NCBI GenBank assembly: GCA_044892525.1
Contig: CM097886.1
Span: forward strand, 83,514,001 to 83,578,000
DNA length: 64,000 nucleotides
Origin: Schmidtea polychroa
Lineage: Eukaryota
Reading direction: 5' to 3'
Shown here in pieces: positions 11,915 through 62,400 of this stretch. The notes below the pieces were generated by a model, which did not search any database, had not been told where the DNA came from, and worked only from the letters and a program-made list of their open reading frames with translations. The translations under genes and the position numbers were made by a program. Each line of letters starts with the position of its first letter. Positions within the stretch are counted from its first letter, which is position 1.

Positions 11915-12307
11915 TAAAATAAATATTTATTTTTTCTGTACATTATTTTATTATGTTTCGTACTATACCTTGGTTTATGGTTAAACATACCGTAATTTGT
12001 GTGGTTTGGTGTAAATATACCGTAATGAAATAATTAAAAATATACTTTAATCTAATGGAGTCCATTTATACATCAAGGTTATTGTTATTACAAGAAATTT
12101 GTGGTGAATAAATAAATAATATTATTGGCTCTTGAATTGAATTTTGAAAATAAAAAACTTGTTGAATCTTGTTATTTTAAATAAAGAAAAATACAGTCGG
12201 ATAGTGTTTTAAAATTTTGGCAGAAATTGTTATAAACATTATATTATTTCATAATTGCTTCACTATATCAAAACTCCAAATTTTCAACGAATATAATTTT
12301 CTAACAG

Positions 12308-22338: not shown

Positions 22339-23499
22339 TAATAAAAACTTTGAAATAAGATCTAGTAGATAATTGATTTAGATTGAATAAATTAATTGAA
22401 ATAAAATTAATTTTAAGTATTTTTTTAAAAGTAATACATGTACTCAAATTGATTGACTGATTTCTCAATATATTCAAAAAAAATCAGTATAAATTCATTA
22501 CAATTATCAAAGTCAGCAATCTACAATAAAAATAATTATCATAAAATTCCAAAAGAGACTAGATAACTAATGATAACATCTAATAAACCAGTAAATTTAT
22601 TTAAATGACAATAATTGGTATATCCTAGTGAATTCTCCAATTTCTCATTTCCTCCCAAATATATCAATATGTAAAGATTGGTATTGTAATGATAAATACT
22701 TGTTAAAGATCATATATTCACCTCAAACTAACAAGATTCCTTAAAATCCCTTAAATGACTATATTTCTACCCTTAATTCATATTATTACAAATATTTCAC
22801 TAAAATCATCTGAAAAGCATCAAATTTCATTGAAATAACTCTATCTTTTAAGATTGATATTTTAATGATAAGTACTTGTTAAAGATCATATATTCCCTTC
22901 AGACTAATAAGATTGCTTAAACTCCCCTTTAAATGACTATAATTCTAACTTTAATTCCTATTATCATACATGTTTCACTATTGATAAAACCGGTTATAAT
23001 TAACTTTTTGTTAATCACTGTACTCGAAATTTAAAATAAATATAACTGACTAGGTCCCATTAAAAGATTAAATTTATCCATTCAATAAAATATATTTCTT
23101 CAAATGATCATTTTACCGATATTCAATCGATTTAATTACTAATTAAAATCAATCGATAGATTTCTTTCAATAAAGATCAATTTTATTTAGTTGTTGTTGA
23201 TGTTTTAAGTCCATATTTCTCAACTTTTGTCATTCTCCGTCTAAATAAAGATAAAAATAATTTAAAGTTGATATCAATCCCATTTATCTGTAAAGCTTTC
23301 ATCGTCAAAACCAAGTAAATCGATCATTATCCTTACTTAATAGAACATTGTTCTAAAACATAAATCTAAATTAATATACAATGAATTAATCACAACCTAA
23401 TAAAACGATATAATTATTATTGATACATAACTGACTAATTGACATTTCCCTTAAAACAATGATATTTTACCAACATCACCATTTAAAAAATCATATATT

Positions 23500-23760
23500 T
23501 CCATCTTAACCCATGTCTCATTAAATTTAACCGACTATATTCCAATCTTAACCCATCCTTCATTAAATTCAATCGACTATATCTCCCTTACAATGATATA
23601 TTCCCACCTTATCTGATCTCTCATTAAATCTAACCGACTATATCCCCTCAAAAGATCATATTTTCCCCATCTTAACCGATCTCTCATTAAATCTAACCGA
23701 CTATATCCCCTCAAAAGATCATATTTTCCCATCTTAACCGATCTCTCACCAAATATTTCT
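23500..23760. repeat. 63-bp tandem repeat (21-codon period on minus strand)
   Basis: TCATTAAATCTAACCGACTATATCCCC at 23621 and 23684 plus diverged or shortened copies; translates as GKYDLLRGYSRLDLMRDRLRW. Confidence 0.8.
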
Positions 23761-24381
23761 ACACTTTTAAACATCTATCCGATTATATCCCTTAATTTCC
23801 CCAAAGATTCCACCCACTTGAGCACTTTAATATATCAATCCTCTTAAAATCCTTAGAGAACTTCAAAAATATGACTTTTAATTAATTGTTATAGACACCA
23901 GACATTCTTCCATTGAAATAATTTAGTAGCTAAATAATAAGAGCCCACTAACCAATCAAAATCATGGAAGGGCAGAGGAAAAATATATTACGTTGCGGTA
24001 TTTTAAAATTAAAATTTATTTTAAAAACACATTTTGACGCTAAAGGCGACTTATGTAACAGACATAATAAACTGATTATTTTCTACAAATATTTACCATC
24101 AAATACCTAACTGGAGATGATATATATTGATTGATCATAATTCTTCATCGATTCAACCAATCATTTTCAAGCAATAACAGCAAACTAAATTTAAAGTCCC
24201 TGATTAAGTTAACTGGTTTCTTAGCTTATGTTTTAAAAGATCATCAATGTGTAAATATTCTTAGAAAATTATTGAAAAAAATTATCTAGTCAAATATATT
24301 ACAAAGTTATCATCAAAAATTTATTCTATCACTTAATTATACCTAATTGTCAATGAAATTAATTTTTATTTAAAAACTATT

Positions 24382-26767
24382 TAGTTGTTAGTAACTAGTT
24401 GTAGGTACTTGGTATCTGGTAATTTGTTGTAGGTACTTGGTTGTTTGAGAGTTATTTAGTACGTGGTATCTAGTTGTAAGTACTTGGTAGCAGGTAATTG
24501 GTTGTTAGTAACTAGTTGTAGGTATCTGGTTGATTTTGGTTGTAAGTAGTTGGTAGGTATCTGGTATCAGGTAACTGGTTGTTAGTAACTAGTTGTAGGT
24601 ATCTGGTTGTTAATATATGTTCGTAAGTTACTGGTTGTTGGTACTAAGTTGTTGGTTTGTTGTTGAATTATTATTAAAATTTGTCTTTAAAAAATATTTC
24701 ATAAAAATTTTCATTAAAAATTATCTTAAAAATTTCCATCTAAAATTATCATTGAAAAATATTTCATAAAAATTTCCATTAAAAATTAACTTAAAAAATT
24801 ATTCCATAAAAATTTCCATTAAAAATTACCATTGAAAAATATTTCATTAAAATTTCTATTAAAAAATTTCAATTCTCAAACACCTTCTATTATTTCAACT
24901 TTTTGTTAATAAATTTTAAAATCTTACTTTAATTTACTTTAATTTACTTATTTAAAAAATTATTACTTTAATTTACTTATTTAACTTTAATTTTAATTTT
25001 TTACCATTGATTACTTAATTTAAAAATTTGGACCTTAATTTACTTTATTTTAATTTTTTAGAACCTTAATTTACTTTAATTTAAAAATTTGGACCATTAT
25101 TTACTGTAATTCAAAATTTTTGACCATAATTTTCTTTAATTTAATTTTTAGACCCATAATTTACTGTAATTTAATTTTTTAGGACCTTTATTTACTTTAA
25201 TTGAAATATTTGAACCATAATTTACTGTAACTTAATTTTTTAGAACCATATTTTACTTTAATTTAATTTTTAGGACCATAATTTACTGTATTTGAAAAAT
25301 TTAGAACCATAATTTACTTTAATTTAATTTTTTAGGACCATAATTTACTGTATTTGAAAAATTTGGACCATAATTTACTGTAATTCAAAAATTTTGACCA
25401 TTATTTACTGTAATTTAATTTTTAAGAACCATAATTTACTTAAATTTAATTTTTTAGAACCATAATTTACTTTAATTTAATTTTTAGGACCATAATTTAC
25501 TTTAATTGAAAAATTTGAGCAATAATTTACTTTAATTTAATTTTTAGAAACATAATTTACTTTAATTTAAAAATTTGGACTATAATTTACTGTAATTTAA
25601 TTTTTAGACCCATTACTTACTGTAATTGAAAAATTTGAACCATTATTTACTGTAATTTAATTTTTTGACCCATAATTTACTGTAATTCAAAAATTTGAGC
25701 CATAATTTACTGTAATTGAAAAATTTACCACGTTTTTTAGTGTAGACCACCTTTTTCTCAGGACCAAGGAGACTCACCTTAATTTAATTCGAAAAATCCA
25801 TGCTTTTTTATTGATAGTCGGATTTTTGTATTGAAAATATCCTGAGACCTTAAATTACCACGTTTTTTTAGTGTAGACCACCTTTTTCTCAGGACCAAGG
25901 AGACTCACCTTAATTTAATTCGAAAAATCCATGCTTTTTTATTGATAGTCGGATTTTTGTATTGAAAATATCCTGAGACCTTAAATTACCACGTTTTTTT
26001 AGTGTAGACCACCTTTTTCTCAGGACCAAGGAGACCCACCTCACTATAGTCTGAAAAATCCTTGGCTTTTTTAGTGGTAGTCGGATTTTTGTATTGAAAA
26101 TATCCTGAGACCTTAAATTACCATGCTTTTTTAGTGTAGACCAGCTATTTCTCAGGACCAAGGAGACTCACCTCACTATAGTCTGAAAAATCCTTGGCTT
26201 TTTTTAGTGGTAGTCGGATTTTTGTATTGAAAATATCCTGAGACCTTAAATTACCATGCTTTTTTAGTGTAGACCACCTATTTCTCAGGTCCAAGGAGAC
26301 TCACCTCACTATAGTTTGAAAAATCCTTGGCTTTTTTAGTGGTAGTCGGATTTTTGTATTGAAAATCCCAGGACCATCGTTTTTGTATTGAAAAAAATTT
26401 TTTGTATTGAAAATCCCAGGACCATCGTTTTTGTATTGAAAAAATTTTATTTGTATTGAAAATCCTAGGACCATCGAGACCCCCTCACTATAGTCTGATA
26501 AATCCTTGACTTTTTTAGTGTAGACCAGCTTTTTGTATTGAAAATTTTTTTTTGTATTGAAAATTCCAGGACCATCGTTTTTGTATTGAAAAAATTTTAT
26601 TTGTATTGAAAATCCCAGGACCATCGAGACCCCCGCACTATAGTCTGATAAAAAAAAATTTGGACCAAAAATCCCTGAAAGCAAAAAAAATGAGTTGGGA
26701 ACAATTTACCCCCCCCCCCCCCCCTGGGGGGGGGGTAATTGTTCCCGTACGCTACTAACTACCTACT
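24382..26767 (-). repeat. Right TIR arm (about 2.39 kb)
   Basis: Mirror of the left arm, with more 30/31-bp units and only one copy of the 242-bp segment. Confidence 0.93.
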
Positions 26768-27219: not shown

Positions 27220-28880
27220 CTATTTTTTCGACTTGTTATAATAGAATTTGAGAAAAACTAGAGCATAAAGCGAATTATCTGAGAATATTGAACGAATTTT
27301 GGTACAAAAATTTGTGCAAACTGAGAAAACTCGTTCTATATCAGTAGATGTTCGTTTAATACAAAGAAGAGCATCATATAAAGAGTAAACTCCTGTTTCT
27401 GTCACTTGATCCAATTGTAGTCATTTGAGTACCTTTATTCAGCAACATGTGCCACTCATCTTGCAATGAAAGTTCTTTTGCAGCATCAGTTTGAGCATTG
27501 GATTCAACATTTAGGGTTGAATCGTCGCCATTCGTTCCAAATAATCGTGATGATAAATTTCCAGCAAAATCAATTATGAACTTAGAAGGAATACTAGAAG
27601 GATCCCCAAGACTTTTAACAAATTTGTCACATCACGATTCCATCTTTCGTCTATTCCCTTTTTGAGGTTGTAAATAGTTCACTGCTAATGTCAGAATTCA
27701 ATTCTGCGACCTTGTTATAAGTAAATCCAATAACTGATTCAGTTGTCAACAAAGTCGAATCCTGTCTACTAAGAACTTCAACTGCAAGTTTGATTGGAGC
27801 CATAGCCTGAAGAAGTGTTTCCAATCCATTGAAATCCAAATTATTTATCATTTCCAAGTTATTCAATTCCGAGAACATTTCAAATAATGCAATTTTCGCC
27901 TTTAAAATTGGCTCAATCATTGTAGGAATCAAATTCCAACGGTGTCTAACATCCAAATGAAGTTCAATGCTATGATCGTGATGTAATTTGACTTTCACTT
28001 GAAATACATGATTATGAACCGTTGATTTTTTGATAAATTTAACAAATTCCCGTGTTCTTTTTAGCAATTCATGAAAGTCAATGTTCTCATCAAATTGATC
28101 GTTAAGTATTTCCATATGTAATTTGTCAAAAGAATCCTTTTCGCTTGTATCAAGACTACCAAGATCACTTGTGTTGATTAAATTATCTCGCTTTTTATAA
28201 AGTGTATCACAGAACGCTAAATGATTTGCATGATTAATACAAAATTGACCAACAACGTCCATTATTTTCATGTATTTCTTATTTACAGCTGCACCATCTA
28301 GGGTTGAAGCTAAGATATCTTGATCTGATACTATACAAAATAATTTTAAATGATTATTCACGTTATCTGCCATGCTTTCAGCAAGACACGATCCATAAAT
28401 TCAATGAAGTTCAATCCATGAAGTTCAATGCCATGGCCGTGATGTAATTTGACTTTCTCTTGAAATATCCATAAATTCTCACGAGGCCTGTTTTAAAAGT
28501 TGTCTTTTCAATGCTCGATTTTCGTCTAGATTTCTTTGGTCATTTCAGCTCTTTTGTCGCAATAGTGATCAATAATTAACTTCATGACATCACATTCATT
28601 GGCATGAAGCTTGAATCCATTTGGCTGAATAGATTTTCTTATATAATTATTTCTAGTTATTGCGTTGATAGTTATTCCGTCAGTAGCTAAGTCTGACACA
28701 ATTTCATTTAATGATTGCTTTTGAACAAAATTCAGCAATTTTTTCATTTTCTTATTTACTGGCTGATATCTCTTGTGTATCTTCATCTTCGTCAAAAATT
28801 CCATGAGATTTCAAATGGTTTCTCAAAGAAGTTCTCAAAGAAGTTTATTTTCTTAGTAACTTTATCTTTAATTTTTGTCG
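27220..28880 (-). pseudogene. hAT transposase, frameshifted
   Basis: TLDGAAVN, CINHANHL (CxxH), LDVRHRWN (DVxTRWN), RTSTDIERVFS...KIRS...L (hAT dimerisation domain) spread over three ORFs. Confidence 0.9.
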
Positions 28881-29558: not shown

Positions 29559-29951
29559 TTACATCATATTAACAAATATACTTAGTTCGTTCAATAACGC
29601 ATCGGACAGAAACTTTTGAACAAATCGTGAGCATAATTTGCGATAGCCTAATTTCCCAATGATGTTGTGACAACTGCTAACACTTATTTTAAGTAATTCT
29701 GCTATTTCACCAACCTTAATTCGTCTTTCAGCTCGAATAATCGCCTCACATTGCGTAATTTTTTGATCGGAAATTTCAGTTGGTCTGCCAACTTTGGAAT
29801 AATCTTGGTGCACACTTTCATGACCATGCTTGAATAATGATATCCAACGATATATTGTGGATCTAAAAGGATATTTGTTACCATATGCAATTACCATATC
29901 GTGAAATATTTCATTAGACGACTTCTTTAAAAGCACATAGAATTTTATCAC
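29559..29951 (-). pseudogene. mariner transposase N-terminal (double HTH) fragment, 3'-truncated
   Basis: IKFYVLLKKSSNEIFHDMVIAYG...TIYRWISLFKHG...GRP...IRAERRIKVGEIAELLKIS...KLGYRKLCSRFVQKFL (cf. WVPR.L). Confidence 0.88.
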
Positions 29952-30732
29952 GCTTTAGATAAAAAATGGAATTATAAGTACGTACGTCAGCCAATCAGAT
30001 TATTTAATTTATACATATAAACAAACATACGTGTAGGTGTTAAAAGCAATTGGTTTGTTTGGTTTATCATGTTTCTTTTTTAGTCAGTCCCAGACATTAT
30101 TGAAGTTAACCAAACAATTATTAATTCAGTTGAAGAAGTACATAAGAAATTTTAAATCTGAAAATCCAAAAATCCTTAAAATAATTTTTATAATAAGTAT
30201 AATAATAATTGGTCAATCTTGAATTTAATTATGTATCAAGACTATGTGTCCATTGAGTATTGATTGTTTGTACAGATTTGTTTGTACAGATACAAAATTA
30301 AGGTATGTTTGATTTTTAGATTTTTATATATTTTAAATTGATTTATTTTTTTGGAGTTTAGAGAAGTTTGTTTTAAAAAAGGTTGGTGGCGAATTTTTTG
30401 GATAGAATAAAGATTTTTAAAAACATTCGTTTTTATTATGAAATGATGTAACTTAAAGAATGGATATGAATTCATAAGTGTTGACAATGATATCTTTGTT
30501 CATGTTAAATCTATCACATCTGATCGAAAAGTTCTTTTCAATAATCCCAAAGCTGACAGAGGATCGATGACTCAAATTACATTGGTGACATTTAATGCAA
30601 AAATGAAAATTTTGATGATATTGATGATGACAATTTTGATGAGTATGAAAATTCAAATGTTGACGATTATGATGTTGAGGTCAGTAAATTAAAATAAATT
30701 TAAATAAAAAGTATACGAATGAAAAATAGAAT

Positions 30733-43720: not shown

Positions 43721-46312
43721 TAATAAAGATTGTTTTTAAAATATTTTAATATATTATTTTATTCATTTTAGTCGTTTGGAGGTGTGTTAGTTTAAATAAA
43801 AATCCTCATTTTATTTCATATTTTCACAAAATAACTCTTTTTATCGAACTTTTTATACATGCCAAGTCAATCGGATATGAGGAAGTGGGTTTATAATAAA
43901 ATTCGACCCAAACAAACAATTAAGTGAAGTTAAATATAAATTTGTAATATATTTGTATTGTTTTCAAGGCTTTAAAATGAATACAATAAAAGTAAAGCGA
44001 TTATTTTGTTTTTTCATGCGTGCAAAGATTCTTATTCTGCAAACTTATTACATATATTCATGAATCATGAATATATAACAATTAATTCTTTAAAGGAAAA
44101 CATATTTCATAAAAAATTATAAACCATGTAGGCCTGCTAAAAACAGAATTCTACATTCGGGTATTATATAAATGGAATAATGAGGGTCTTAGAACTATTT
44201 AAAAAAATGACCTGAAATGACCTGAAATGACCTGAAATGACCTTGAAGTGCTTAATGCACATTGTTTAATTTAAATTTGAATTAGACTTTCTAAACATAT
44301 ACTGAGAGTATATGACTCGTTGTGTAAACTGTACAGCTTTTATGCAAATATTTACTCAAAAGTCTACGAAGTTTTAACACTAAAAATGACGAAATCATCA
44401 TATTGAAACTTTCTACAATGAAGTGCAGCAGACGGCCGCTTTGCTGAGAGGTTTGACGTTGTTTTGCTTAAAAATGAATTATTAGTTCAAATGAATTTTA
44501 TGTGAGTGCTATAGTGTGAAAACAAAAATATAAAATATAATTTATATAAAAAATTAATCAATAAAGTCAAAATTGAAATATTTTATTATTTATAATTATT
44601 TTTTTTAATTTGATTTGTTTGAAGACCCTTGGTGCGCACCTAGTGGACCTATACGTAAACACGGCACTGATGATTATTTCTTAAATTTTATATTTGGAGC
44701 AGTTTGTAGTAATTTTTTAGTGGTCCCTAACGAGTTTAAATAAAGGATTAATAATGAAAATAGAATCTGTAGTATATGAGCATCTTTCGTGCAAAACAGA
44801 AAAGGATAAAATACTTCCAATTTCCCCTGTTTTATTTTTATACAATATTGAAAATATCACTAGAGTAAAGGAGAACTTTTGGAAAACTGATTTACATTAA
44901 TAAATACTAGTGCTAAGTCCGAATTAATGACAACAGAACTTTACGGTTTGGACTATGAAAATGTCATCAATATATCTTTTCCACATCAGGATCTTATTTC
45001 CAAAAATTTATCTAATATTTAACAAGCATTTAAAGCAAATTTTCAGATTTGAGACAGAAATAAAATTTGTTTACAAAATTTTGTTTCGTATAAAACGTAT
45101 ATTATCTGAGAAATTCAAATTTAATACAAATCTTTATTGCAGTTTTTTATCATTATATTTTAGTAAATTGTTAGTAAGTTTAGTTTATAGTCTTAGCTGT
45201 TTAATATTTGTGCACAATTTGTCCTGCCATCTGACGACTGCATTTGAAATATTAATTTATTTTTTTATAGTTTTAAATTTGGGTTACTTTAACATTTTTA
45301 AACTATTAAAACTATAATTTTAAACGTTTTCTTTTCCTGAATAGAAGGTTTATTGATAAAATATATTAAAAAACAAAAAACACAGAATTTTAGCACCATG
45401 TTTGTGGATCACCTAACTGCTCGTAGCGTACCACCAGTGGTTTAAACGGTTTTCCTTTAATTAATACAGTATCTGAGTTTATGGCTACTTTGACAATTTN
45501 NNNNNNNNNNNNNNNNNNNNNNNNNNNNNNNNNNNNNNNNNNNNNNNNNNNNNNNNNNNNNNNNNNNNNNNNNNNNNNNNNNNNNNNNNNNNNNNNNNNN
45601 NNNNNNNNNNNNNNNNNNNNNNNNNNNNNNNNNNNNNNNNNNNNNNNNNNNNNTTTAAGTCTTTTGCTGCGAATTATATATATATATTTAATAAAATGAA
45701 AGAATTTTCAATTACACCCATCGCTCGCTTAACGAAAATTCATTTTACGAAATTTCGATAACATAGTTTTGTTTAACGAAATTTCTATTCATGAAATATA
45801 ATTTCCTTAAACCGAAATTTCAAATTTTTAAACAACTTTTCGCAAAAGAATTAATTTCATAAAGCGAGGGGTATGTGTATAAAAATTGTCCTTTTCAATT
45901 TCCTGGAATTTAGTTGCTTCCATTTTCAAATGCTTTTTGATCTTTTCTTTTATTTCCTTTTTCTTACTGTTCATTGGTTAAAAATAAACTGAATCAAAAT
46001 AAAACTTTTTTGAAAAAATCTAAAAATTCTTTTTAAATTAAATTTCCTTTAAAATTCAAAACAAAATAATAAACATTTTTTTAAGTTTTTAAAGCTTCTA
46101 TAATTAACTCATAATAAATAGAAGCTTTAAAAAATAATATCATAATATATTTATAAAAAGAATCTTCAAAATACATACGCAATTTAAAATAATTTAATTA
46201 TATTTTGATTTTTATTCCTAATGATTTCTAAAAGTTTACTTCCTTAAAATTTGATTTAGTTATTTTGTATATTATTTGAAAATTATTATTTTAAAAAATA
46301 TATAACAACTAT

Positions 46313-46543
46313 TCAGACTAATGATTTCATTGATTCTACTTTAACGTTTCTTATTGGCTGTCGGTTTATGATGAGAATTGCCTCTTTAAATCTGACATTT
46401 TTCTTTTCTTTAAGTCTTTGGAGCAAAATCCTGAGCGTACTTCCAATGTATATTTCTTTGCATGCATTACACGTGATGCAAAAGACAACGTTTTTTTCGG
46501 AAGTATATTTTCTTCGGTGACTGGCTGGTTTTTCACTGTGCAA
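46313..46543 (-). pseudogene. Penelope-like element GIY-YIG endonuclease relic
   Basis: KNVVFCITCNACKEIYIGSTLRILLQRLKE matches PLE NVVY.I.C..C...YIG.T.R.L..R..EH; internally deleted. Confidence 0.8.
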
Positions 46544-47599
46544 TGTTTTCGTTTTTTCTGTTATTTGCCAGAGCTTCCAAGAGCTTTCACTAATATTCTG
46601 GCTTAATTTTCATTAGATTGTGACAAATGATGAACTTAGTGCTGGTACCTCAGAAATCAAATGTGTTTAGCCTCAAGAGAAATTTGAAATAAGATAAAAA
46701 TGTCTAAAGTATTATCATTTTCCTGTTAGTTCTCATTAAAAATACTGATCCTCAAACAAAGTATTTAATTTTTTTATAAAATATTTTTAGCAATTTTAAA
46801 CAAGATTATTTCTTGCAATTGGGGTTCAAAACTAAATTGATTTTTAAGTGAAATTATGTTATTCATAATTATATTGTTTATAAATTACTGATTTTTCATA
46901 ACTTCGAAATGTTAATTTCACCATTAACAGGGAACAATGACTTAAAATGCGGCCTATCCTTAAATATCTTAAAATTGAAAATAACTACAAATGATAGGAT
47001 AAATTTAAAAAGAAATTCACTATTTGAGGTTTTGTAAATAAATTAATTGATGCATTCACAGTAGATAAAAATGTTTTAATTGACATATTTTTACAGATTA
47101 ATAGGCGTGACTTCATTGTACTAATTATAACAATAATTTTTTAATATAATGATTAAGGTCGAATTCAAAGCATTTTTAAATGAAAAAATTAATTTAATTA
47201 ACCTCTATTAATTAATATTGTATTGATCCATTTATTTTTTTTTATTTTACAATTAAAACAAATATTATTTAGATAGAAAGGATAAAACATTTTTAATTAT
47301 CTAATAATTATATAAAATTAATTTTGATATAAACCAGGTTAAATTTAATTTATAACATAATTATGAGTGCTAAGTTTGTATTATAAATTTAATTTAAAAT
47401 ATTTTGTATTTATCCAAAATTCATAAAAAATAGCTATTTTAAATGCTAACAAATATATTAGGGTTTCGCGAGTATAATTAAAACAAATACGAATAATCCA
47501 TAAATCCTTTTGCTAAAAACCATGAAAACTAATTAAAAAATATTTTCCCCAGGAAAAGATTCTTTGTGATTTTTCAAAAATGTTGACATAAATACTATA

Positions 47600-48440
47600 A
47601 ATACATAAATAATAAATAATATGATAAATAAATAAATATTACCTGGGAGAAAATCGTCATGACGAATGAGAAGAATGAGACGAAAGTAAAAAGAAGTGAG
47701 AAATGAGAAAGATAAATCAAACAAGAAATTAAAACAAAGATCAACATTAATTAAGAAGTACAAAGAGGAAAAGGAATTTCAAATTCCAAAAACAAGAACA
47801 GGAGAAAAATGTATATCTTAACAGCTTGTCACATTTATCGGAATTGCAGGGAAAATCGGCCTAACAAAAAAATGGAAAAAACAAGGCATATCTCGACATG
47901 TGTCAGATATAAGACAGGAACAGTGGAAAATGCAAAAGGAGAAAAAATAAGAAAACAAAAATACCACAAATGTAGTATGCTATAAAAGGGAAGGACACAG
48001 AAGTCAGTAGAGTGGAAAAAACGGAGTTAAAGCAGAATTAAAGGAGGTGATTCAGAAATATTTAATTGGGAGAGTGACGAGAATCTTTGGAAAAATTTAA
48101 TATAAAAATAGAAGTGTAGTAAAGAATTTGTGATCAAAGCAAATAGAGCAATTGATTAACGTACCTGTGAGTGAGTAGGTTGACGACTAGTGATTATTGT
48201 TATTATTATTGGCAATTATACACGGATAGCTATTCTTCACGTAAGTGTCACAATAAGCTCTGTATAATTCTCTGTTTTAGAGTTGATTGGTTTTGTAATT
48301 GGAACTTGTACAATATATTGTGAATATTAATAAAGGTTTATTTTGTTCGAGAGAGTATATTTGTAAATCGATAAAACACGCTAGGAGTCAGAGACGGGCT
48401 TGTTGAATTTATAGTTCATCACTTATCAATAAACCCAACA
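47600..48440 (+). mobile_element. LTR-like family A copy (left boundary approximate)
   Basis: AAAACACGCTAGGAGTCAGAG...AATAAACCCAACA 3' end; purine-rich body. Confidence 0.4.
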
Positions 48441-48909
48441 AAATTAATTTTTGAAAAATATTGAAATTTTAGAAACCTACATTTTCGCACCAATTTTATA
48501 AATTTACATTGGAATGTGGTAAAATATATGAAAAATGGAATTTTTAAGTTAGAGAAAGTGTTATTTGAAAAATGGTAGAGATCGTCGAAATCTGCATTTT
48601 AGCTGATCATGAAATGTTAGTATAATATTGAAAAGGCGGTAAAATCACTTTATCAGTTTTCAAGCTTCCCATGCTTGTCTTTATATATGATTAGTCTGAT
48701 GCTTTGAAAATTTTGAAAGTATCGTTTGTTATTTTGTTCTAATAGTTGAGACAAGTCTTTTTGAAAACCACAACTTTTACGATTTCATTCTAAGTTCCTC
48801 AAATCCAGAAAAAGTAAAATTCTATGAGTTGACAATTTTCGTAATGTTTAATATATACAATTCTAAGAAATTTTTTTTCAAATTTCACCACTGATTTTTT
48901 TTTTCATTG

Positions 48910-48992
48910 TATTTATTAAAAAGCTTAAAGACTATGAATCAGTAAATATTACTGATTTACTGATTCAAAGTCTTCAAGCTTTTTAATAAATA
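48910..48992. repeat. Long hairpin (38-bp stem, 2 mismatches, 7-nt loop)
   Basis: TATTTATTAAAAAGCTTAAAGACTATGAATCAGTAAAT-ATTACTG-ATTTACTGATTCAAAGTCTTCAAGCTTTTTAATAAATA. Confidence 0.9.
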
Positions 48993-50479
48993 TAATATAT
49001 ACAAGTCTAGATTTCACGTATTTAATATATAGACATCTACTTTACAGTATTGACTTTATATTGACCTTATATTACAAAATTAATATCCCATTTCACATGC
49101 ATGTTATTAATGTTTTTCAAGTAATATAGTTAAACATGATGTTCATCATTCACAAAAATTGCAAAATTGTGAAACAGAATACAAATAATGTTTACATGTA
49201 GTAAAGTTCAGATTTTTGACGAAACATTTTTATGCGTGTAATCGATTGTGCATCATTATTATTAAGACTTTTTCTTTCATACTGAAATATACCAATTACG
49301 AAGTCAAGAATATAAGAGATGAGTCAAATAATTATTCGAAGTGTCGAAAAAACTTTCAAAAATCCTAATCGGTAATAGTTTGCTTAATTTTTAGTATTTA
49401 ACTTCACGAGAGAAAGATGTTAATCTTCCAATTAGGGTTCAAATATTTCTGTAATTGGACATATTGCAGTTGGTACATCCGTTATTTAGATAAATCTAAA
49501 ACAGTAAGATCAATATAACTAGATTCATCTTAAACAATTCAAATCGTTATTCGGATGAGCTGCAAAAATATCGTTATCAATTATGATGCACTTTCTGAAA
49601 GACGATTTTGATGAATATATAATCATCTTTTCAAATGAATTAAATAATTTCAAATTCATCCTCCGTTTCAGATTTTCAACGAATTTAGCATTATTAGGAT
49701 TTGTCTAGAGAGGCGCAATAAAAATTTAATTGAGTGGAAATCGATAATAAATGGCAAAATTTATTAAAAATCAAAAAATAAAATGCAAAAATTAATTAAA
49801 AAATTGGGAAAAAATAAGAATACAATAATATGAAAATCAATGAAGGCCGTTTCAAAAAAGCTTTTCAAAAAACACCAATTAATAAAAACAAATTAATTGG
49901 TAAGTGGGAAACCCCAAGCAATAAATGAAAAAATAAATGAGATTAGCCTTTGTTCAATAATTAACAATGAGATCAATTTATCTTAAAATCAAATAAGCAG
50001 CAGAGAATCTCTGGAAAAAGGTGAGAGGTTGCCTTCTTCATTATTTTGTTTTTTTAACCATAAATACCGCTTACTTAAGTGTTTTTACTTTCGAAATGTT
50101 TGCCTAATTTAAATATTTTGTTTTGAAAAACTGCTATGAAAACTGGCTAAGGGCTAGTTGGTCGAAGATAACATTTTGAATAATTGAATAACATTGAATA
50201 GTTCAAGAATAGTTAGAGTTAGTGAATTGACAATACTGTTAGAAATTTTAGTGAAATTGAATACAATATATTGTGTTGAGTGTCATTGTTTATTTTTAAC
50301 TAAAGAGTACCTGGAGTCAGAATGTGATACCCCCCTTTACAATAATAACTCAACAACATAGTTGTATTTGTATTAATATATTCTTTAAATATTGGAATCT
50401 GCATAAACCTAATTGTCCTATGAATATTTACATTGAAATATTTGAATTTTGAACTTGGAGCCAATTTTGAGTTTCAATT

Positions 50480-50800
50480 TAAAAAGCTTCATGAATGAAA
50501 TTAGTCATTCTTTTGTCTTCAAATATATGTACGTTGTAGAATGATGATTCATCAATAGCAAAATGCACAATTTCCTTCATCTTTCACGGACAAATTGTAT
50601 GTTTCGAATTAAGTCCAATCTGATATCCGGTTAATAATAATGCTTCAACTCGAACTCTTTTTACCATTAATTGAACATCTACTAATTGAAATTTTAACGC
50701 TCAGAATATAATGATAATGCAGAATTAGATCCCTTCAATTTAATGTGAATATTAATACATGGGAGTAAATATTTTTCTGATACGTGAAATCAAACGGTAA
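50480..50800 (-). pseudogene. Probable Polinton/Maverick major capsid protein (double jelly-roll) fragment
   Basis: SEKYLLPCINIHIKLKGSNSALSL, then frameshift, LVDVQLMVKRVRVEALLLTGYQIGLNSKHTICP*KMKEIVHFAI. Resembles Polinton MCP (Q.R.LLNG.D..IKL.RS..F.L ... I.DA.L.V.KV.V...AH..AL....AKYP) by recalled consensus only. Confidence 0.5.
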
Positions 50801-50856
50801 GGAAAAACACGTTGTCAACACTTTTAAGCCTTTAATCCAAATTTTTCCTTACACGT

Positions 50857-51615
50857 GGTTCCTGTTCACTAAATATACCGCTAACTTCATTATTATCGCC
50901 GTTTTTATTGATATATTTGACCGAATTTTGAGTTGTTTATTCTTTGGTATTTGAAATACTTCAACACTCCAATTACTATCAAAATTCTAAATGAATCGTG
51001 GAATCAAATATTTAATATATATTTTAACATGATAACCGACTTTATATTTCGGCTTTTATTTTTATTTTGAATATAACACCTTTCTTTTGATGTTACATCA
51101 ACCATTTCCAATCCCTTTAGAACCCAAAGTTTAAACTAATATAATATGAATCACTGCAACTATGAAATATTTTCGATAAAACATTTACTCATGTTTTATT
51201 ACCTTGATTTATAAAATACATTTTGAGTTTATCTCTCAATATTTTATTAATTCGTTCAAAACGGGCTGCTTTGAATTCTGAAAATACCGAGTAATATTTT
51301 ATTATATTAATAATTTCTTTAAATTTACTATTGTAAAATTTTAGTCAAATCTGTATAAAAATTATTTGGTTTTCCACTTCTAAACATTGATTTTAATTTT
51401 AAAGTCTTTTTATTTGCAAATTTTGTTTTGATTGAGATTGCACGAGCTAATCAACTGAAAACATCAATGCTTGTCAAAATATTCTCATAGTTCTTGTTAA
51501 TTGTTGAAAATGGAATCATTTTCATCAAATCCATTTGTCATAAATTGATAAAAATATATGTTCTTGTGGGAAATCTTTTCAACGTCGGTTTGTTTAGACA
51601 AAATCTGGGTAAACT
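50857..51615 (-). pseudogene. Polinton/Maverick retroviral-type (c-)integrase, decayed
   Basis: KPTLKRFPTRTYI...L*QMDLMKMIPFSTINKNYENILTSIDVFS*LARAISIKTK; FYTD; FYNSKFKEII; KYYSVFSEFKAARFERINKILRDKLKMYFINQGNKT*VNVL; KPKYKVGYHVKI; NWSVEVFQI; SGIFSEQE. All three DDE residues and the Polinton-type C-terminal domain are present. Confidence 0.88.
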
Positions 51616-52461
51616 AGGGTCCTTGAGTTTACTTTTTCGTAACGCATTTTAAAAATAAAACATAATGCATTGAAGAAATTGCAAGACAGATGCAGTACAA
51701 TTGCAAAACATAATTCATATAGGTCACATACACAACGTTTAAACATTGCTAATGTACAAGATTCATGTTAATTCAGTTGAATGGATTTTACCGGAGGCTT
51801 GCGTAAATTAGCAAATACAAATTCGAAGACAAATCTAGTCAGCATCATGTTTTAAGTAAGCACTCAGTTTCAGCTCCAAGTAAAAAAGCCCAGTGATTAT
51901 TCTTTTTTTTACAAAGTTAATAAATACTGGTTTTAATAAATATTGTTATTATTATTTTGATTGTCTTAAATATTTTACCTACATATATCGAATAAATAAC
52001 ATTCACCTGAGTTGCCCCGACACAAAGGAGACTCTGATGGGCCCTACAGACTCCTATAAATACACGCACCGAAAAAATAACAAATTTGAAGAAATCCCAT
52101 TAAAAGTTAATGAATGCTGGTTTAACAATATCTCAGTCAAAATATACAAAATCAATTCAATTTGGAAGTCGATCTTGCTAAAATCTAATTAGAATTTTAA
52201 TTGTTTTGTTTAGTATATATGTTTAATCAATACATGGTCTTCTTAATTATTTTTTACCCGTGGATATTTTATAAGGTACAATGTTTATGGTGTCGTAATT
52301 ATGATATTGTAGAGGTTTTCACCTTAAATTGAACTATTTTCATGATTACAATGGTTACCATGCTGTTTATATGGTATTCTATGACTTACTTTAAAAATTA
52401 AAAACAAATTTCACCGACTTTTTCTAAGGGATCTTGGCCTAAATCTGACAGGCTTATCTAC

Positions 52462-52462
<1 letters not shown>

Positions 52463-52550
<88 letters not shown>
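52463..52550. repeat. (ATT)n microsatellite
   Basis: About 29 uninterrupted units. Confidence 0.97.
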
Positions 52551-52551
<1 letters not shown>

Positions 52552-52733
52552 GTATAAAATGATGATTGCTTGGTAGCAGCATTTATTATTTAAAACAATA
52601 AAATGATAATTTAAGCCTTTTGCTGCAAATAATGTATTTAATGAAAGAATTTTCGACTATACGATAGTCCTTGTCAATTATTATAATTATTATTATTTTA
52701 TATTATTATTATAATTATTATAATTATTATTAT

Positions 52734-53437
52734 TGTTGGGCTAGAACTGGGTTCTAGACACAAACTTCTAATTGTGACTGAAATGCGTAGGTACACAGCA
52801 TGCAAAAAGCAAAAAGTGTAGTTAAATATTAAAAATACACCAAATAAACAATATTAATTAAAGGAGAAAACAACAAAAGAATAAACACAGAAATTAAATA
52901 AAATTATATCAAAAGCAAGAAGTTATGCAACATCGAACTCAAAAATAACCAAATAAACATAGAGTTACAAAAAACAAACTCGAATAACTTAACAGACGGT
53001 AAAAATAGTAAAAAATTCCAGAAAAACCCAAAACATTCCATAAAAATGGTGATGACCATCACAAAAGCTATCTAAAACCATAAAAAGGAGAGAAAATAAA
53101 TAAATTAGTATTAAAAATAAAAATTCTTAAAAAGAAATTCGTAAAATATCAGTTAAAATAAAAATTAATTTAAAGTAATATGGAATGTTCTGGAACCGTT
53201 CCAAATCCATCATGGACGTAAAAATAACAAGAAATAATTAAAAAATAAAAGTTTAAAAATAAAAATAAAAATTATGGCACTAAAATTGCCATTAAAAATA
53301 TCAAAATTACAAAATAGAAAATTCTGGAATAAAAAGAATTCGAGTTTGTTTTAATGCATCAATACATACACGTGTACAAAACAGGTATATATACCGACGC
53401 ATTTTCGTCACAATTCAGATATTTTTGTATGCCAAAA
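52734..53437 (+). repeat. A-rich LTR-like repeat, family B
   Basis: Starts TGTTGGG after TTA repeats; 3' end shared with 31486-32617. Confidence 0.4.
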
Positions 53438-54489
53438 ACTTTTACTGAAACATCAAGCAGTATTGAAAGTAAGGATGATCGTTTATATTTATTGTATAAT
53501 TATTATTTTATGATACATTATATTGATTGTTAATTTTTATCCTTTTTTGTTATCATTTTACTATTACGTAACAAGAGTGACCAGCGTTGTCGACGGGTTA
53601 TATTCGCGACGCTGATCAGCCTTGTTTCCAACTACTATTTCACATGCACAAATTCGGGTCTACGACCTTACATGCACAAAATTTCATTTTTTAACCGGAA
53701 GGTCGCCACGAATAAATGGTTTCTAACCAGGAGTAGGGCGGTAAATCCATCCAGGTAGTTGGCATAGTCGCAGGGACTATGCGGACGAAATAAAATTTGG
53801 GCTAGTAATCGCGGGAAACATAATACAATAAGGCCTATCGTACCGTATTCAGTTGAGTCGGGAAAGTAGGAAAATTTTAAATAAATCGACCTTTCGGTAA
53901 ATCACATACATAAAATGTACACTCAAATATTCTATAGGAAATACATCATTAGGAACATCTAAACGGGAAATATCCCAGACTCAAATTATCACAAAAGTTC
54001 CCAAGTAGTCGGCTAATTGCACAAACTATTATTCAGTATACTCAATATTAACTACTATTAAGAGATTCTATTAATATTATTCATAATTATATTCAATGAT
54101 AAATAATGTATTATCATTATATGTATTAATTATAAACTAAAATCATTTCGTAAAAATTTTATACTTACCGTTATATGTATCGAAATTTAGCTTATATAAA
54201 ATCTTTAAATTTTTTGTTTGTGCCCTAATAATACTATCATCTTTAGGATCATTATTATTATAATTATTATTTTTACAAAGTTACATTAATAAAGAGTATA
54301 TCATTACCATTAGTATATTAAAGCATATATAAGTATATTAAACTTTAAAAAACAACTAACCCAAACTAACCCAAAGTTACGAAATCGTCGAAACACATGT
54401 TCACATTCATAACCTAACTTATATAAGTATATTTGAAACTTATAAAAGTATAACCCACCTTGGTTCATCAGTGCTTAGGTTTCATATAT

Positions 54490-55268
54490 ATAGTGGTAAA
54501 TTAACTTATTTTAATATATATTTAGGTTTTAGAATGTTAAAATGATAGTTTATAAATATTCATAAATAACCCCCCCCCCGAATAATACCTTCATTACCCA
54601 GTGCATAAATACCCTAAACTAACTTATTACAATATATATTTAACTTGTAGAATGTTAAAATGATAATTTATAAATACTTATGAATGACCCCCCTGAATTA
54701 TACCTTCATTACCCAGTGTATAAATATCTTAAACTAACTTATTACAATATATATTTAACTTGTAGAATGATAATTTATAAATATTTATGAATGACCCCTC
54801 TGAATTATACCTTCATTACCCAGTGCATAAATATCCTAAACTAACTTATTACAATATATATTTAACTTGTAGAATGTTAAAATGATAATTTATAAATACT
54901 TATGAAAGACCCCCCTGAATTATACCTTCATTACCGGTGCATAGATATCCCAAATTAAATTAGTTTAATATATATTTAGCTTGTAGTATGTTAAAAATGA
55001 TGATTTATAAATATTCATAAATGACCCCCCCCCGAATTATATATCCATTACCCATTACACAAATATCCTAAATTAACTTATTTTAATATATATTTAGCTT
55101 GTAGTATGTTAAAAATGTTGATTTATAAATATTCATAAATGACCCCCCTCCGAATTATATATCCATTACCCATTACACAAATATCCTAAATTAACTTATT
55201 TCAATATATATTTAGCTTGTAGTATGTTAAAATGATAATTTATAAATATTCATACATGACCCCCTCAG
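54490..55268. repeat. About 115-bp tandem satellite, about 6.5 copies
   Basis: GACCCCCC anchor at about 54570, 54686, 54794, 54908, 55023, 55141, 55257. Confidence 0.95.
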
Positions 55269-57102
55269 TTCATATAGTCCTTAATGACTACTCAAAGGTA
55301 TCAATCTAATTTGCTTCTAGACATAGTTAGCTTACATTACTTTTAGAAATGTCGTTTACATCTTGTTGCAACCGACCCCTCCAAATCCAGTAGCCGTAAA
55401 CTATTCATGATCTCATAAAACTATGAACTTACATTTATTATTTGTTNNNNNNNNNNNNNNNNNNNNNNNNNNNNNNNNNNNNNNNNNNNNNNNNNNNNNN
55501 NNNNNNNNNNNNNNNNNNNNNNNNNNNNNNNNNNNNNNNNNNNNNNNNNNNNNNNNNNNNNNNNNNNNNNNNNNNNNNNNNNNNNNNNNNNNNNNNNNNN
55601 NNNNNNNNNNNNNNNNNNNNNNNNNNNNNNNNNNNNNNNNNNNNNNNNNNNATTGACATTAACATTTTCACCCTGGTCATTACTATCACTATTATCATTA
55701 TGGTTACGTTATTAGAATGATTATTTTCTTAAATAAAATTTTAACCAAAATTATTGATTTTGGGATCCCCCTATTTCTAAATTTAGTTACAAAGACACTA
55801 TCCTCCAATAAAATCCCGGAAAACTACTGAGACCTATTTTTAGCAACACCCCCCCCCCCGGTAAACGACGTCAGGATCAGTAACTTGAATTTGTAAGTTT
55901 ATGTAGTTATAACTGTGTATGTGCATATGTGAGTGTACGTGTGTATGCCTATATTAATAATAACCTCATGGAAGCATGGTTGTCCCTCGGATCATCGTGT
56001 GATGGAACACTCTAGTTCATTTATCTACCCCAGAAAAAACAAAATTATGCCGAAGCTACCCTAAAGAACTGAATATCTGAGTAGGATTGTTTAAAGAAAT
56101 TAAAAGACTCAAAAAATCTAGCTGAATTTATTGACCAAAATACTCTTTAAAAAAACGGAAAACGACATAAATAAATCAAATTATATAAAAGTCACTTTGA
56201 ATGCTCGTTTCACGAGAATTATATAACCAAATATTTCCATCACGGTAAATCCTCGAAAGCAAATGACAAATCGCTGAACGCCTTCGGGTGCAATTTGTGA
56301 ACTTAGAATTCCACGGCATGGATCCAAAATCTGAAATAAATAATAATTCCCAGCTAAACCCTCGCAAATTTAGAATGTTGGCCTATTCTGAACTCCCATC
56401 AAACAGTGGCATCTCGAATTTATTATCTAAGTTGTCATCTTCAAAGTGAAGAGTTTGGAGACTCATTCCTGAAATTATACAAATTTAAAAGATTTCAAAA
56501 GCTAATTTACCCGTTAAGTATCAGCTGATGAGGGAGCTACTTACAACCACTATGGTCAGGGATTCGCAAGAGCTGAATGTAAATTCAGACAATTTACAAT
56601 ATCCGCTTCCCATAGTGGGTCCTAGTAGTATAAATTTTGCCAAAAAAATTATCAATAGAGAATTCTAAAAATTATTAAATGAAAAATAATATTTGAATTA
56701 ATATAGATTGGTATAAATAGTTAAATTAAATCTTTGAATGATTTAAACAACCACTATTGGAAGTTTAATTTATAAAATTTTAAACGCTCATTTCTACTGT
56801 ATCAACCATTAGTTCATCAAAACCAAGCTCATGGATTTCCACTTTAAACATACGAACTGCAATTCTGTAACTGATACTTATAAACTTGAATTTCGTAATT
56901 CTCTGGCCAACTTAAATTACATCGAAAATCAAAAGGGGAAAATTAATTAGCACATTAAGTTCATTTTTTCACCACCTAAAATATCATTGCAATACGGGTC
57001 ACGTTTGAATTTAAATGCAACAGTGCGTTAAACGTCTTGGGGTAACCAGACGTAGACGAGCGAATAGAAATTTTACTAATATGTTCTCTTAATATCTCAG
57101 GC

Positions 57103-57603
57103 ATGCCTACTATTAGCCCAGAAGACAGCTACGCGAATCCCTCGGCATCTACATCCAGACTCAACCTAAACCACGCGGAGGTAGACGAAGTCGCCAGATT
57201 GGACCAGGAGGAAGAACTCACTCGCCTGAGGTCCAGGTGGATCTGGTATAAAATCCATGATTGAACCTACCAGAACGTAGTCCCAGTGATCCCGAAGGTG
57301 GAGCCGTATATCAATTATACATCATTGGCTTTGGGCGACGCATTCGACGATGCGAAGGAAGCGGTGGACCGATTGCACAGGCTCGAAACAGCAACCCTGG
57401 CCGGCGAGCTCGAGGACATTGACGGTTACGCTCGAGCTCAATGTCATCCTAAGCGGACCGCAGCCCTTCGCCGTGGGCTGGAATACCCAAGGAGTCCTCA
57501 ACGTGGGCCGAACCAGCGGAGAAAACGCGGACGCCCACGAAAAACCACCAGCTCAGCCAAGGAGATTACCGGGCCAAAAGCCAGCATGGTGCGACACGCC
57601 TAA
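57103..57603 (+). pseudogene. GC-rich orphan ORF with AT-hook; one in-frame TGA near 57262
   Basis: MPTISPEDSY...KIHD*TYQNVVPVIPKVEP...QRRKRGRPRKTT...; RGRP AT-hook at about 57517-57543; sampled lines about 50-60% GC. Confidence 0.5.
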
Positions 57604-58150
57604 CATCTGCGTTGTGAGCAAGGACTGGGACTCGTAATCAAACACTATACAGCACGAAATAATTTTGTTGCTAAATGTACAGTGCGATTTATGTAGTGTG
57701 ATGAATGTTTTTATATTACTTTTTATGTCTTGGCAGTCGTATTAATCCAACTGCTTATTTATGTTTTGGTCATCAATATTAATTTCATTATTGGTATCGT
57801 TTTATTTTTGATTATTTTCTTTAACGTAGACCAGTATTATTATTGACTATAATTTTTCTTAATTCAATTGTTTATTTATGTTTTAATTATCAATACTAAT
57901 TTCATTGTTTGCACCGTTTTAATTTCAGTGATTTTCTTTAACGTGGGCCATTGTTACTATTGACTATAATTTTCCTTAACGTTGACCATTACGACCAGCC
58001 CTATAAGTTTTGGTAAGATCCATAGAACTAGGTCTAGGTGTGCGTAAAGGAGGGCAGTGACGAAGAGACTACATTCACTTAGCATTGATGCTCATAATAA
58101 TACGCGTCACTCAATGCTGAGGAGAAAATCACTAATGTTGTCTTATTTTA

Positions 58151-58916: not shown

Positions 58917-59480
58917 TTAAAAATCTTCTCTTCGTATACCTTTCAAAGCAAAAACACGCGTGTGTCTAAAAAAACCTTGACAATCCTCTTCTGTAATACG
59001 GGCTGCTGAAATTTCAATATTACTATATAGTTCTGTTATAGTTTTCGAGTTGCAGGATTTTATTATATGCTTCCATTTACTGAACACTTCCTCGATAGGA
59101 TTTAACTGGGGGCTGTAAGGAGGAAGAAAAAATAGTTCGAAACCGCTTGTACCTAAAAAATTTCTTAAATTTTCACTCTTGTGAATTGAAGCATTATCCA
59201 TCACTATCCTACCACTTGTAATACCAGATTCATTTAAAGTGCTAATTACTGCTCTCATAAATTCAAGAAACGATATTGAATTATATGCAGTATCTTTTAT
59301 TGTAAATTTAAGGACACCGAATTCATCAATAAAAATTAAACTTGATTCATCTTGCAATATATATTCATTGCAATAGGCTTCACGATCATCGATATATAAA
59401 TTCTGATTATGTTTCTCGAATAAATCTTTAGTGGGACATTCATATCGGGCCATTTTGATTTTTCTCAATATGTTAATTGT
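58917..59480 (-). pseudogene. Tc1/IS630 (DD34E) transposase catalytic domain, 5'-truncated and internally deleted
   Basis: LIFIDEFG...IVMDNASIHK...FLPPYSPQLNPIEEVFSKWK; 34 residues between D and E. Confidence 0.92.
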
Positions 59481-62400
59481 CGTAACGGGGACGAAAAGAA
59501 ACCGGACATAGGCCTTCTATCGGCAGTCCGTGAACCCCAGTGGGTGCTAGACAATTATAGTATGTTAAGCATGCTCACTTTTTGCTAGTACCCAAGCCTT
59601 TGATACAGTACCAACGTTGATTACTCAACGGGTATCAAGTGGTCAGCTATAAATTGTATCCTGGGTTACGTTGGAAACAGCAGGCGTAGGTAGAAACTTT
59701 GANNNNNNNNNNNNNNNNNNNNNNNNNNNNNNNNNNNNNNNNNNNNNNNNNNNNNNNNNNNNNNNNNNNNNNNNNNNNNNNNNNNNNNNNNNNNNNNNNN
59801 NNNNNNNNNNNNNNNNNNNNNNNNNNNNNNNNNNNNNNNNNNNNNNNNNNNNNNNNNNNNNNNNNNNNNNNNNNNNNNNNNNNNNNNNNNNNNNNNNNNN
59901 NNNNNNNNNNNNNNNNNNNNNNNNNNNNNNNNNNNNNNNNNNNNNNNNNNNNNNNNNNNNNNNNNNNNNNNNNNNNNNNNNNNNNNNNNNNNNNNNNNNN
60001 NNNNNNNNNNNNNNNNNNNNNNNNNNNNNNNNNNNNNNNNNNNNNNNNNNNNNNNNNNNNNNNNNNNNNNNNNNNNNNNNNNNNNNACTATTTGTTTTAA
60101 TCCTATTGAATTATTTTAATTACCTTAATAAAGATCAAAATGGAAATAAGAAATTCATAATTATAGTTTAATGGAAACAACAACAAAATCAAACGACTTA
60201 TTAGAGAAATCATTTCAATCTAATTATGTCCTGCATCATATCCTTGATGTCAGATGTAGCTGTTTAACAAAGAATTGAGAACACATCTTGACACCTAAAA
60301 ATACCGAAGATAAATTAGAAAGTGAAAATTAGATTGTAACGGTACTGATCAAAGAAGTCTATATTGTTTGGAATTCGTTATTGTTATTAATTAAACATGC
60401 TTTGAAGTTGGATTGCTAGTTATTAATTTTATATTTCACAGACAAAACCCCAACACTCATTTTGTAAAACACCAAAACTAAAACAATTTGGATATTCTTA
60501 GGTAAGTTTTGCAAAAATGGGAAGTAAAAATCAGAAGGTCAATAAAAGTATTTCAAATCTTAACCAAGAGAATGTTGAAGTAAATATGACATTTTGTAAA
60601 GTTCATGTACTACTTACAAAATATACCTTAGTTACTTTTTAATTCAATATATCTGTTATTATAACTGAAATTAAAATCTTATGAAAACTGTTATTTCTTA
60701 TAAGTGCGTTCCATGAAGTATTTCATGTTGATTGTCACCTGTTTTGAGTACCAAGTGTTTCGTATTTACACAAACATTATTTCTCATTTAAATAAACAAT
60801 AAATAATTTCATTAAATTTTTCATATTGGCTTTTGATCTTAAAATTTACCGACTACAAAAATCTATATTTAATATTTTACAATTTATTTTCAGTTCCTTT
60901 ACCAATGAAGCGGAGTTTTTAGTTTAACTTTAACTTGTGAAATATATTTCTAAATATATTTTAACGACCTCTACTGAAACAACGTTCTATAGGGGGCTGC
61001 ATTTTATTTTTATAATAAATGAATTAATCTTTAATTTCTGTTAGTATTAAAATGCAATTTTGTTTTAAAAATAATGAATTTTAGAAATAAATTATATTAC
61101 AAATGAATTTATTTATGAAAAAGAAACGCACTAGGAAGATATTAATGCATTTATTATCAATTATTATACATCTTTTGAATTTATATAATTATTTTATATT
61201 ATCTTTTAAAATTAGAATTTTATTTTTTATATCAACACCTACATTTTTTGATTTTTTGTTAATAAGCGAAAGCTTCTGATTTTGGAATTTTCAATTTTAG
61301 TACATAAATAATTATTTTTAAAATCTATTTACTACTTTACAGTAAAATAAAAAATAAATGAAAGATTATATTTTTCAATTATCGTTGTTTATGAAATAAT
61401 ATAAATATAAATTTGATTTTATTATCTAATTTTGTAACATGTCTAAAAAATAAAGAGCTGTTGATTTAAATATAGAACCAGAGAAAAACAATAAATATTA
61501 TTACATTTTGTTGATATTTACGATATTTGACTTAACTTAGAAATTTCTATATATTTTGTAATTCAAAAAATATTACGAAAAAGTGTTTTTTTAACTATAC
61601 TTAATATTACAAGATTTTCAGTGACATTTTTGGAGGGAAAATGGTTTAGCTTAAATTAAATTTTGCTTAAAAAACAATATTATTATAATACTATTTAGAT
61701 TGTTTTCAACCGCATAATCTAGAAATGGAAATATTACCAGTTTAAGCCTTAAAGCAAATCATATACTTAGTTTTTTTCAATTCATCGCATATCCAGACAT
61801 TTTCGCATCAGTCATCAAACATCGAAGTGATAGCGACCTGGTTATATAATTAATTTATTATTATTATTATTATTATTATGCCACTTTAGATATACAAAGA
61901 TATTGACATAATAATACGAAATTAATTAACTTTTCTTAGTTTTAAATGACTCTTTATTTCATGAAATATTTTCATCAACAAAAATACATATTTATGTATT
62001 TTCCATTAAATAAATTTGCTTTATATTAGTTTTTGCTTTATTATTTGCTTTATATAATTTTTATATATATACACCACCGGGTAACCGATCAAAAATGACA
62101 GAAATAAAACAAAACCTTTTTTAATTAGATTTTTTATTTCAAATTTTTTACAAAAATGTTAATTAATTCTTATCTTCATTAATACTTCTTTTTTAGAGCT
62201 TAGAAGCATTAATAAAAATACACAAATATTATATTTAGAAAAAACCACGGCAATTTGGTATAAAAATAACTATTTAAAATAGTCAGTAGAATAAATTTAT
62301 GAATAATAGAATATTTAATAAAAATTCCATTACACACATGAAGACAAATACATGAAAATTATAAGTAAATAATTCGCAATTTTATTGCTGTAAAATTGTA

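Follow-up and report, generated by a model that had tools for sequence, protein, structure and literature searches.

Results

A broken copy of a Polinton/Maverick element, in which pieces of the integrase, capsid and polymerase genes directly adjoin one another, lies within the window, our term for the whole 64,000-nucleotide stretch of DNA analysed here (G000:C2:83514001-83578000, part of a 781-Mb, AT-rich genome). The locus is identified as a Polinton relic by three genes that were tested and by the order in which they lie: on the minus strand, the integrase at 51603-50850 is followed by the middle of the capsid gene at 50850-50430 and then by a family B polymerase at 50432-49253. The fossil retains about 2.0 kb of coding remains, and every gene is broken. 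With a probability of roughly 0.9, it was once a capsid-encoding Polinton of about 15 kb that integrated long ago, lost most of its length by deletions at short shared sequences and decayed neutrally. The features, with missing lengths as mapped on one near-complete family A copy, are:

52070..52168, plus strand: C-terminal remnant of a small conserved element gene, weak (tblastn on the whole window, 46% over 39 aa, E 8e-4)
50850..51603, minus strand: integrase pseudogene, residues 48-297 of 341, without the N-terminus and chromodomain; 4 stops, 4 frame changes
50848..50852, minus strand: joint 1, integrase to capsid; the genes adjoin without a spacer, some 1.9 kb is missing, and the frame across it is ambiguous
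50430..50850, minus strand: pseudogene fragment of the major capsid protein covering residues 143-290 of 406, with 2 stops and 3 frame changes
50428..50432, minus strand: joint 2, capsid to polymerase; the two genes overlap by 5 bp (TGTAA) and are in frame with each other; some 4.9 kb is missing
50357..50432, minus strand: fragment 1 of the family B DNA polymerase, corresponding to about residues 995-1020 of the 1329 in the open copy L020
49692..50356, no strand assigned: dispersed repeat, about 670 bp long, that interrupts the polymerase, with about 60 bp of polymerase missing at the site
49253..49691, minus strand: fragment 2 of the family B DNA polymerase, from residue 1039 to about residue 1190; stops, 2 frame changes

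An initial annotation had placed the fossil at 50480..51615 and had called it absent from the open reading frame track. That absence is confirmed, as no frame of at least 100 aa in the window's list covers the motifs it named. The extent given there is real but too short, since both polymerase pieces (50432-50357 and 49691-49253) and the weak small-gene remnant at 52070-52168 fall outside it. Pfam searches of ten stop-free pieces of the fossil returned chance-level matches only and nothing meaningful.

Integrase and capsid pieces

The open integrase of L005 aligns with 51603-50850 (minus strand) in five frame segments at 55-65% identity (E 4e-52). In the aligned frames, stops interrupt the integrase at 51540, 51453, 51191 and 50989. 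Together with the motifs QMD, YTD, FER, KPKYKVG and NWS.EVF, all present in the translation, this alignment upholds the assignment to a Polinton integrase that had been made by eye; the D, D and E of QMD, YTD and FER are what we take to be the catalytic triad. The domains are recognisable in an open integrase of family B (L014), which matches Pfam rve at E 1.3e-10 and Chromo at E 7.5e-6. A homologue search returned 2086 relatives of the integrase, nearly all of them unnamed, and so provided depth but no names.

The capsid piece was identified by two approaches. Residues 143-290 of the 406-residue open capsid protein of L022 align with 50845-50429 at 59-67% identity (E 2e-30), and a profile built from 106 capsid relatives detects 50700-50464 at 37.3 bits (iE 4.6e-13) and 50879-50691 at 9.8 bits. 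With the same profile, the best domain in the reversed window scored -6.1 bits. The suggestion that this segment resembles the middle of the Polinton major capsid protein was therefore correct. In contrast, the spacer of about 60 bp proposed between integrase and capsid does not exist: those bases encode capsid residues 143-165 in another frame.

The evidence on the fold comes from the open relative L022, the fossil being assigned to it by alignment (residues 143-290). An alignment-based model of L022 with 105 relatives reached a pLDDT of 91.5 and a pTM of 0.88, and Foldseek matched it to the capsids of iridovirus, PBCV-1, Sputnik and mavirus (E 1e-16 to 1e-11, TM 0.52-0.68). The open capsid protein is thus predicted to be a double jelly roll, of which the fossil piece covers only the middle. 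The capsid homologue search (123 relatives, nearly all unnamed) likewise gave depth and no names. Sequence searches of solved structures with capsid and polymerase queries yielded nothing meaningful.

Polymerase pieces and flanks

Beyond the capsid, two polymerase fragments were recovered (E 3e-6 and E 1.7e-25). Residues 995-1020 of the open polymerase align at 50425-50348; against the L062 polymerase this first fragment is 68% identical over 25 aa (E 3e-6), with a DNA identity of 72%. Residues 1039-1173 align at 49689-49307, and similarity at the DNA level reaches 49253. The aligned frames contain 2-3 stops, and the GDTDS motif of the open polymerase is disrupted in fragment 2 by a deletion of about 20 bp. 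The C-terminal part of L020 that matches fragment 2 was placed in PF03175 clusters at 0.96-0.98 by a protein atlas (14-28% of cluster members carry PF03175), while Pfam itself made no PF03175 call on L020. The L062 polymerase also matches a PHROG DNA polymerase at E 1.9e-19. Polymerases of families B and D contain a weak endonuclease VII-like match, at about residues 610-644 in L020; Krupovic et al. 2024 (PMC11161782) mention that homing endonucleases can be inserted in polinton polymerases.

The repeat that separates the two fragments has 53 matching pieces in the genome, counted from the best 40 of 159 candidates, the top ones 66-83% identical. By eye it has no clear terminal repeat or target duplication, and four copies that were translated share no coding frame. 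Just past the polymerase end, at 48835-48997, lies a short repeat that is 73-85% identical to pieces in several loci and occurs in both orientations in L037 and L050.

On the other flank, 52070-52168 scored 10.0 bits (iE 2e-4) with a profile of 4 open copies of the small gene, and the reversed control scored -1.2 bits. The parent gene encodes about 140-160 aa and has no Pfam family; in complete copies it lies close to one end, on the opposite strand from the integrase, and the orientation of the remnant agrees with that arrangement. Remnants of the same gene were found in three of four other loci fetched for this flank (L079, L080 and L082). Because this weak remnant stands at 52070-52168 on the expected strand, it suggests a third deletion, covering the TBP-like gene, the ATPase and the start of the integrase. 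No element sequence matches the roughly 470 bp that separate this remnant from the integrase start.

Are other morphogenesis genes preserved nearby? The initial annotation had proposed scanning the flanks for ATPase, protease and polymerase. The scan recovered the polymerase pieces but neither of the other two: remnants of ATPase, penton or protease were absent from the whole window at E<=1e-3 and from 44000-58000 at E<=0.05. Mapping on the near-complete copy puts the penton and protease places inside intervals missing from the fossil, and the TBP-like gene was undetected in the fossil. Likewise, no recognisable termini or target duplication lie alongside it, a single match with 3 mismatches at 47685 being at chance level. 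Termini and the remaining morphogenesis genes are not seen because those parts of the element are gone.

Open Polinton families in the same genome

When 50400-51700 was searched at the DNA level, scoring the best 40 of 2329 candidates yielded 44 matches, most of them 70-77% identical over the integrase. Complete copies carry a small gene and the TBP-like gene on the plus strand and, on the minus strand, ATPase, small gene, integrase, putative penton, small gene, capsid, protease, (small gene,) polymerase. The fossil preserves part of this series, in the same order. In complete relatives Pfam recognises Pox_A32 (ATPase, E 3.5e-6) and Peptidase_C5 (protease, E 2e-4). The penton gene, of 340-350 aa, has no family match and is labelled by position only, as in PMC4028283. 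The TBP-like gene of open copies matches PF00352 at E 2.4e-15 (L021, 1728-2195).

Two complete copies of about 15.0 kb have terminal repeats and 6-bp target duplications (C3:134.49 Mb, GCAGCA; C3:110.43 Mb, TATGGC), and such ends occur in complete relatives of families B and D. Whole-length open capsid frames were found in 96 of 99 scored matches, the best 99 of 5056 first-look candidates. That capsid-encoding Polintons colonised this genome, as the initial annotation held, is therefore true, but the fossil adds little as independent evidence for it, these capsid genes being open already.

The nearest open family is A (L002-L012, L022, L094), which differs from the fossil by 24% in both integrase and capsid, compared with 39% for the family B capsid gene. 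In the capsid tree (midpoint-rooted) the fossil groups with the decayed copy L050 with a FastTree support of 0.97, on a long separate branch. Both trees omit rows that cover <75% of the segment; for this reason the capsid tree lacks family B and the integrase tree lacks families C/D. L050, the closest sampled relative, has deletion breakpoints different from those of the fossil.

Rearranged copies were also observed. At L052 2233-8573 (G000:C1:152.34 Mb) a tandem array of about eight 801-bp units lies inside a Polinton copy, each unit containing an integrase piece with an internal deletion and the first part of the putative penton gene. In L091, L092, L025 and L102 a family A copy is situated within a large inverted structure, together with a distantly related polymerase (about 27% identical) and an integrase of a second type (about 38%); these distant genes apparently belong to another Polinton lineage.

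Deletion joints and decay

The internal deletion inferred earlier is real and is in fact two: relative to the near-complete family A copy, about 1.9 kb is gone at joint 1 (the integrase end, putative penton gene, small gene and N-terminal third of the capsid) and about 4.9 kb at joint 2 (the capsid end, protease, small gene and first three quarters of the polymerase). At joint 1 the two sides share no more than about 3 bp, as judged from relatives that are 24% different. Only the window itself spans joint 1 among 3 candidates, and it was the sole match for joint 2, with 1 candidate scored. No multi-copy family sharing these joints was found among the candidates scored; genome searches scored the best 40-99 candidates and skipped common words, and may therefore have overlooked another copy of a joint if it had diverged.

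Seven other distinct deletion joints were present among the loci scanned, including an independent integrase-to-capsid deletion with other breakpoints (L011/L012). Counting duplicate loci of one event once and scoring the ambiguous joint 1 as out of frame, 4 of 9 distinct joints are in frame versus 3 expected by chance, and a bias to in-frame joints was rejected. In L011 929-1717 and L012 1890-2666 (G000:C2:183.61-183.64 Mb), the family A deletion has produced an open frame of about 260 aa that joins integrase and capsid; both arms of an inverted duplication spanning about 21 kb carry this deletion.

Within the aligned frames there are 4 integrase stops, 2 capsid stops and 2-3 polymerase stops, and the reading frame changes 9 times overall. 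Of the sites that do not vary among five open copies, 80 of 470 in the integrase and 41 of 262 in the capsid are changed in the fossil (16-17%). By codon position 1/2/3, its differences amount to 20/17/12% in the integrase and 19/13/16% in the capsid, whereas the open families A, B and C/D differ between themselves by 6-17% at second and 34-47% at third positions. Since the fossil, unlike the open families, has no excess at third positions, its decay looks neutral. On codon-position counts, the substitution pattern appears to be that of neutral decay after the lineage stopped replicating. A capsid-encoding Polinton lineage would have been in this host long enough for about 16% neutral change, and related families are near-identical and open.

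Discussion

How did the fossil reach its present form? We favour loss in the chromosome. A full-length element of about 15 kb would have integrated by means of its own integrase. Blocks would then have been lost at short overlaps, by microhomology-mediated repair or replication slippage, a third deletion would have taken out the TBP-like gene, the ATPase and the first part of the integrase, and the polymerase received the insertion of about 670 bp while the locus decayed neutrally. It probably has no function today. This history is supported by the ordered gene subset, the complete copies of about 15.0 kb, the even spread of substitutions and the seven other distinct joints. Against it, termini and target duplication are gone, so the original insertion event cannot be demonstrated; moreover, joint 1 offers only about 3 bp of microhomology, and some 470 bp lack any element match.

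Could the deletions have preceded integration? It is unlikely that the fossil is an integrated defective Polinton virus genome, belonging to a recurring class of derivatives whose lineage is now extinct here. We regard as very unlikely the corresponding mechanism, in which template switching by the protein-primed polymerase produced a short defective genome that integrated with the help of a complete element. Joints at 3-5 bp overlaps would fit, and deletion derivatives as well as gene-less elements with Polinton ends and 6-bp duplications recur in the genome. However, chromosomal repair leaves short overlaps too, neither joint was seen at a second locus among the candidates scored, no termini remain, and the closest sampled relative, L050, carries a different deletion.

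It is highly improbable that the joined pieces were once a selected integrase-capsid-polymerase fusion protein or a copy of a spliced transcript, even though joint 2 is in frame, its capsid side starts with the donor-like GTAAC, and the independent L011/L012 deletion leaves its integrase-capsid frame open. The GT-starting bases are kept at joint 2, which means that no intron was removed and rejects a spliced-copy origin there; in-frame joints are near their chance expectation (4 of 9, against 3), substitutions show no codon-position constraint, and the capsid piece represents only the middle of the predicted fold.

An integrase from an LTR or Ginger element with a chance likeness to capsid, for which the rve core family common to LTR elements might speak, is barely credible: on the LTR side, the one compared, a gypsy-like integrase-bearing frame from the same genome matched the fossil at 20 bits (E 0.097) versus E 9e-53 for a Polinton integrase, so that the best match anticipated for this reading did not occur, and the capsid profile score (37.3 bits against -6.1) and the family B polymerase next in expected order refute the LTR and chance-capsid combination.

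Relation to the element at 17103-26767

The fossil had also been proposed as a candidate relative of the helper of 17103-26767, a largely palindromic, gene-less element whose ends are of Polinton type and which is flanked by a perfect 6-bp target duplication, TCCCGT. The outer 700 bases of its arms show 672 matches and 4 mismatches. Exact matches to its 24-base terminus number 25 genome-wide. Five further paired copies, 12-18 kb long, lack Polinton genes, and four of them have 6-bp duplications; one same-strand pair (L073) has a single weak integrase match of 38%. The element belongs to a recent gene-less family, and the fossil is far older, because it is about 16% decayed while these arms are near-identical.

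The helper proposal is accordingly weak: the fossil has no termini, and the nearest sampled family, A, with ends AGTAGAAGG / AGTAGAAGGATGTG, has just 5 terminal bases in common with 17103-26767. Family D has 6, and the very abundant family B, ending in AGTAGGTAGTTATG, has 12, together with 236 exact 19-mer terminal matches. Because of these 5 bases in A against 12 and 236 terminal matches in B, the fossil would be only a distant relative of any helper, and family B the better candidate. A Polinton terminal-repeat piece lies elsewhere in the window at 8146-8565, with a terminal-like motif at 8146; its part at 8237-8565 is 87% identical to the family B terminal repeat over 332 bp.

Further features of the window include a frame with a phospholipase D-like motif at 12305-12712 (plus strand; PLDc_2 E 7.7e-5), possibly a host-gene exon, and a stop-free frame of 249 aa without Pfam match at 27651-28400 (minus strand). 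Transposase remains with DDE_3 (E 2e-21) and helix-turn-helix domains, a combination presumably typical of Tc1/mariner, occur at 58917-59516 and 29559-29954, both on the minus strand.

Comparison with known Polintons and Mavericks

The fossil is real, ordinary and of a known kind. By itself it matters little, decay being the usual state of Polintons (96% of vertebrate Maverick loci are degraded according to Barreat and Katzourakis 2021, PMC8097293), and virion formation is impossible for this broken copy. The fossil may be usable as a dated marker, provided that sister species have orthologues. Possible virion production and satellite mobilisation by animal Polintons would be better studied in the open families and in the gene-less palindromic elements that carry Polinton ends. 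Among the papers listed by literature searches on Polinton/Maverick capsids, deletions, non-autonomous forms and adintoviruses, none deals with this locus or its families, judging by titles and the openings of abstracts.

With Polintons/Mavericks as described in the excerpts of Krupovic et al. 2014 (PMC4028283) and Krupovic et al. 2024 (PMC11161782), the fossil shares the rve integrase, the family B polymerase and the double-jelly-roll capsid, the last as predicted from its open relative. Complete relatives in this genome add the A32-like ATPase, the adenovirus-type protease, the length of about 15 kb, the terminal repeats and the 6-bp duplications, and match the Polinton definition in PMC4028283 and PMC8097293. 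Unlike such elements, the fossil lacks ATPase, penton, protease, terminal inverted repeats with an AG-rich start and the 6-bp duplication. The TBP-like gene of the open relatives is not among the core genes listed in the excerpts of PMC4028283 and PMC11161782. Mobile polintons without polB are described in insects in 10.1101/2025.02.07.637071.

A close parallel is provided by degraded Maverick/adintovirus relics, as presented in PMC8097293 and in Starrett et al. 2021 (PMC8502044), an example being the human chromosome 7 relic in the latter. These likewise contain stops, frameshifts and insertions, have no discernible terminal repeats and, like the fossil, are recognised by alignment to complete relatives. 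They belong to another host and lineage, whereas the fossil has open relatives, at a DNA difference of about 24%, in the same genome.
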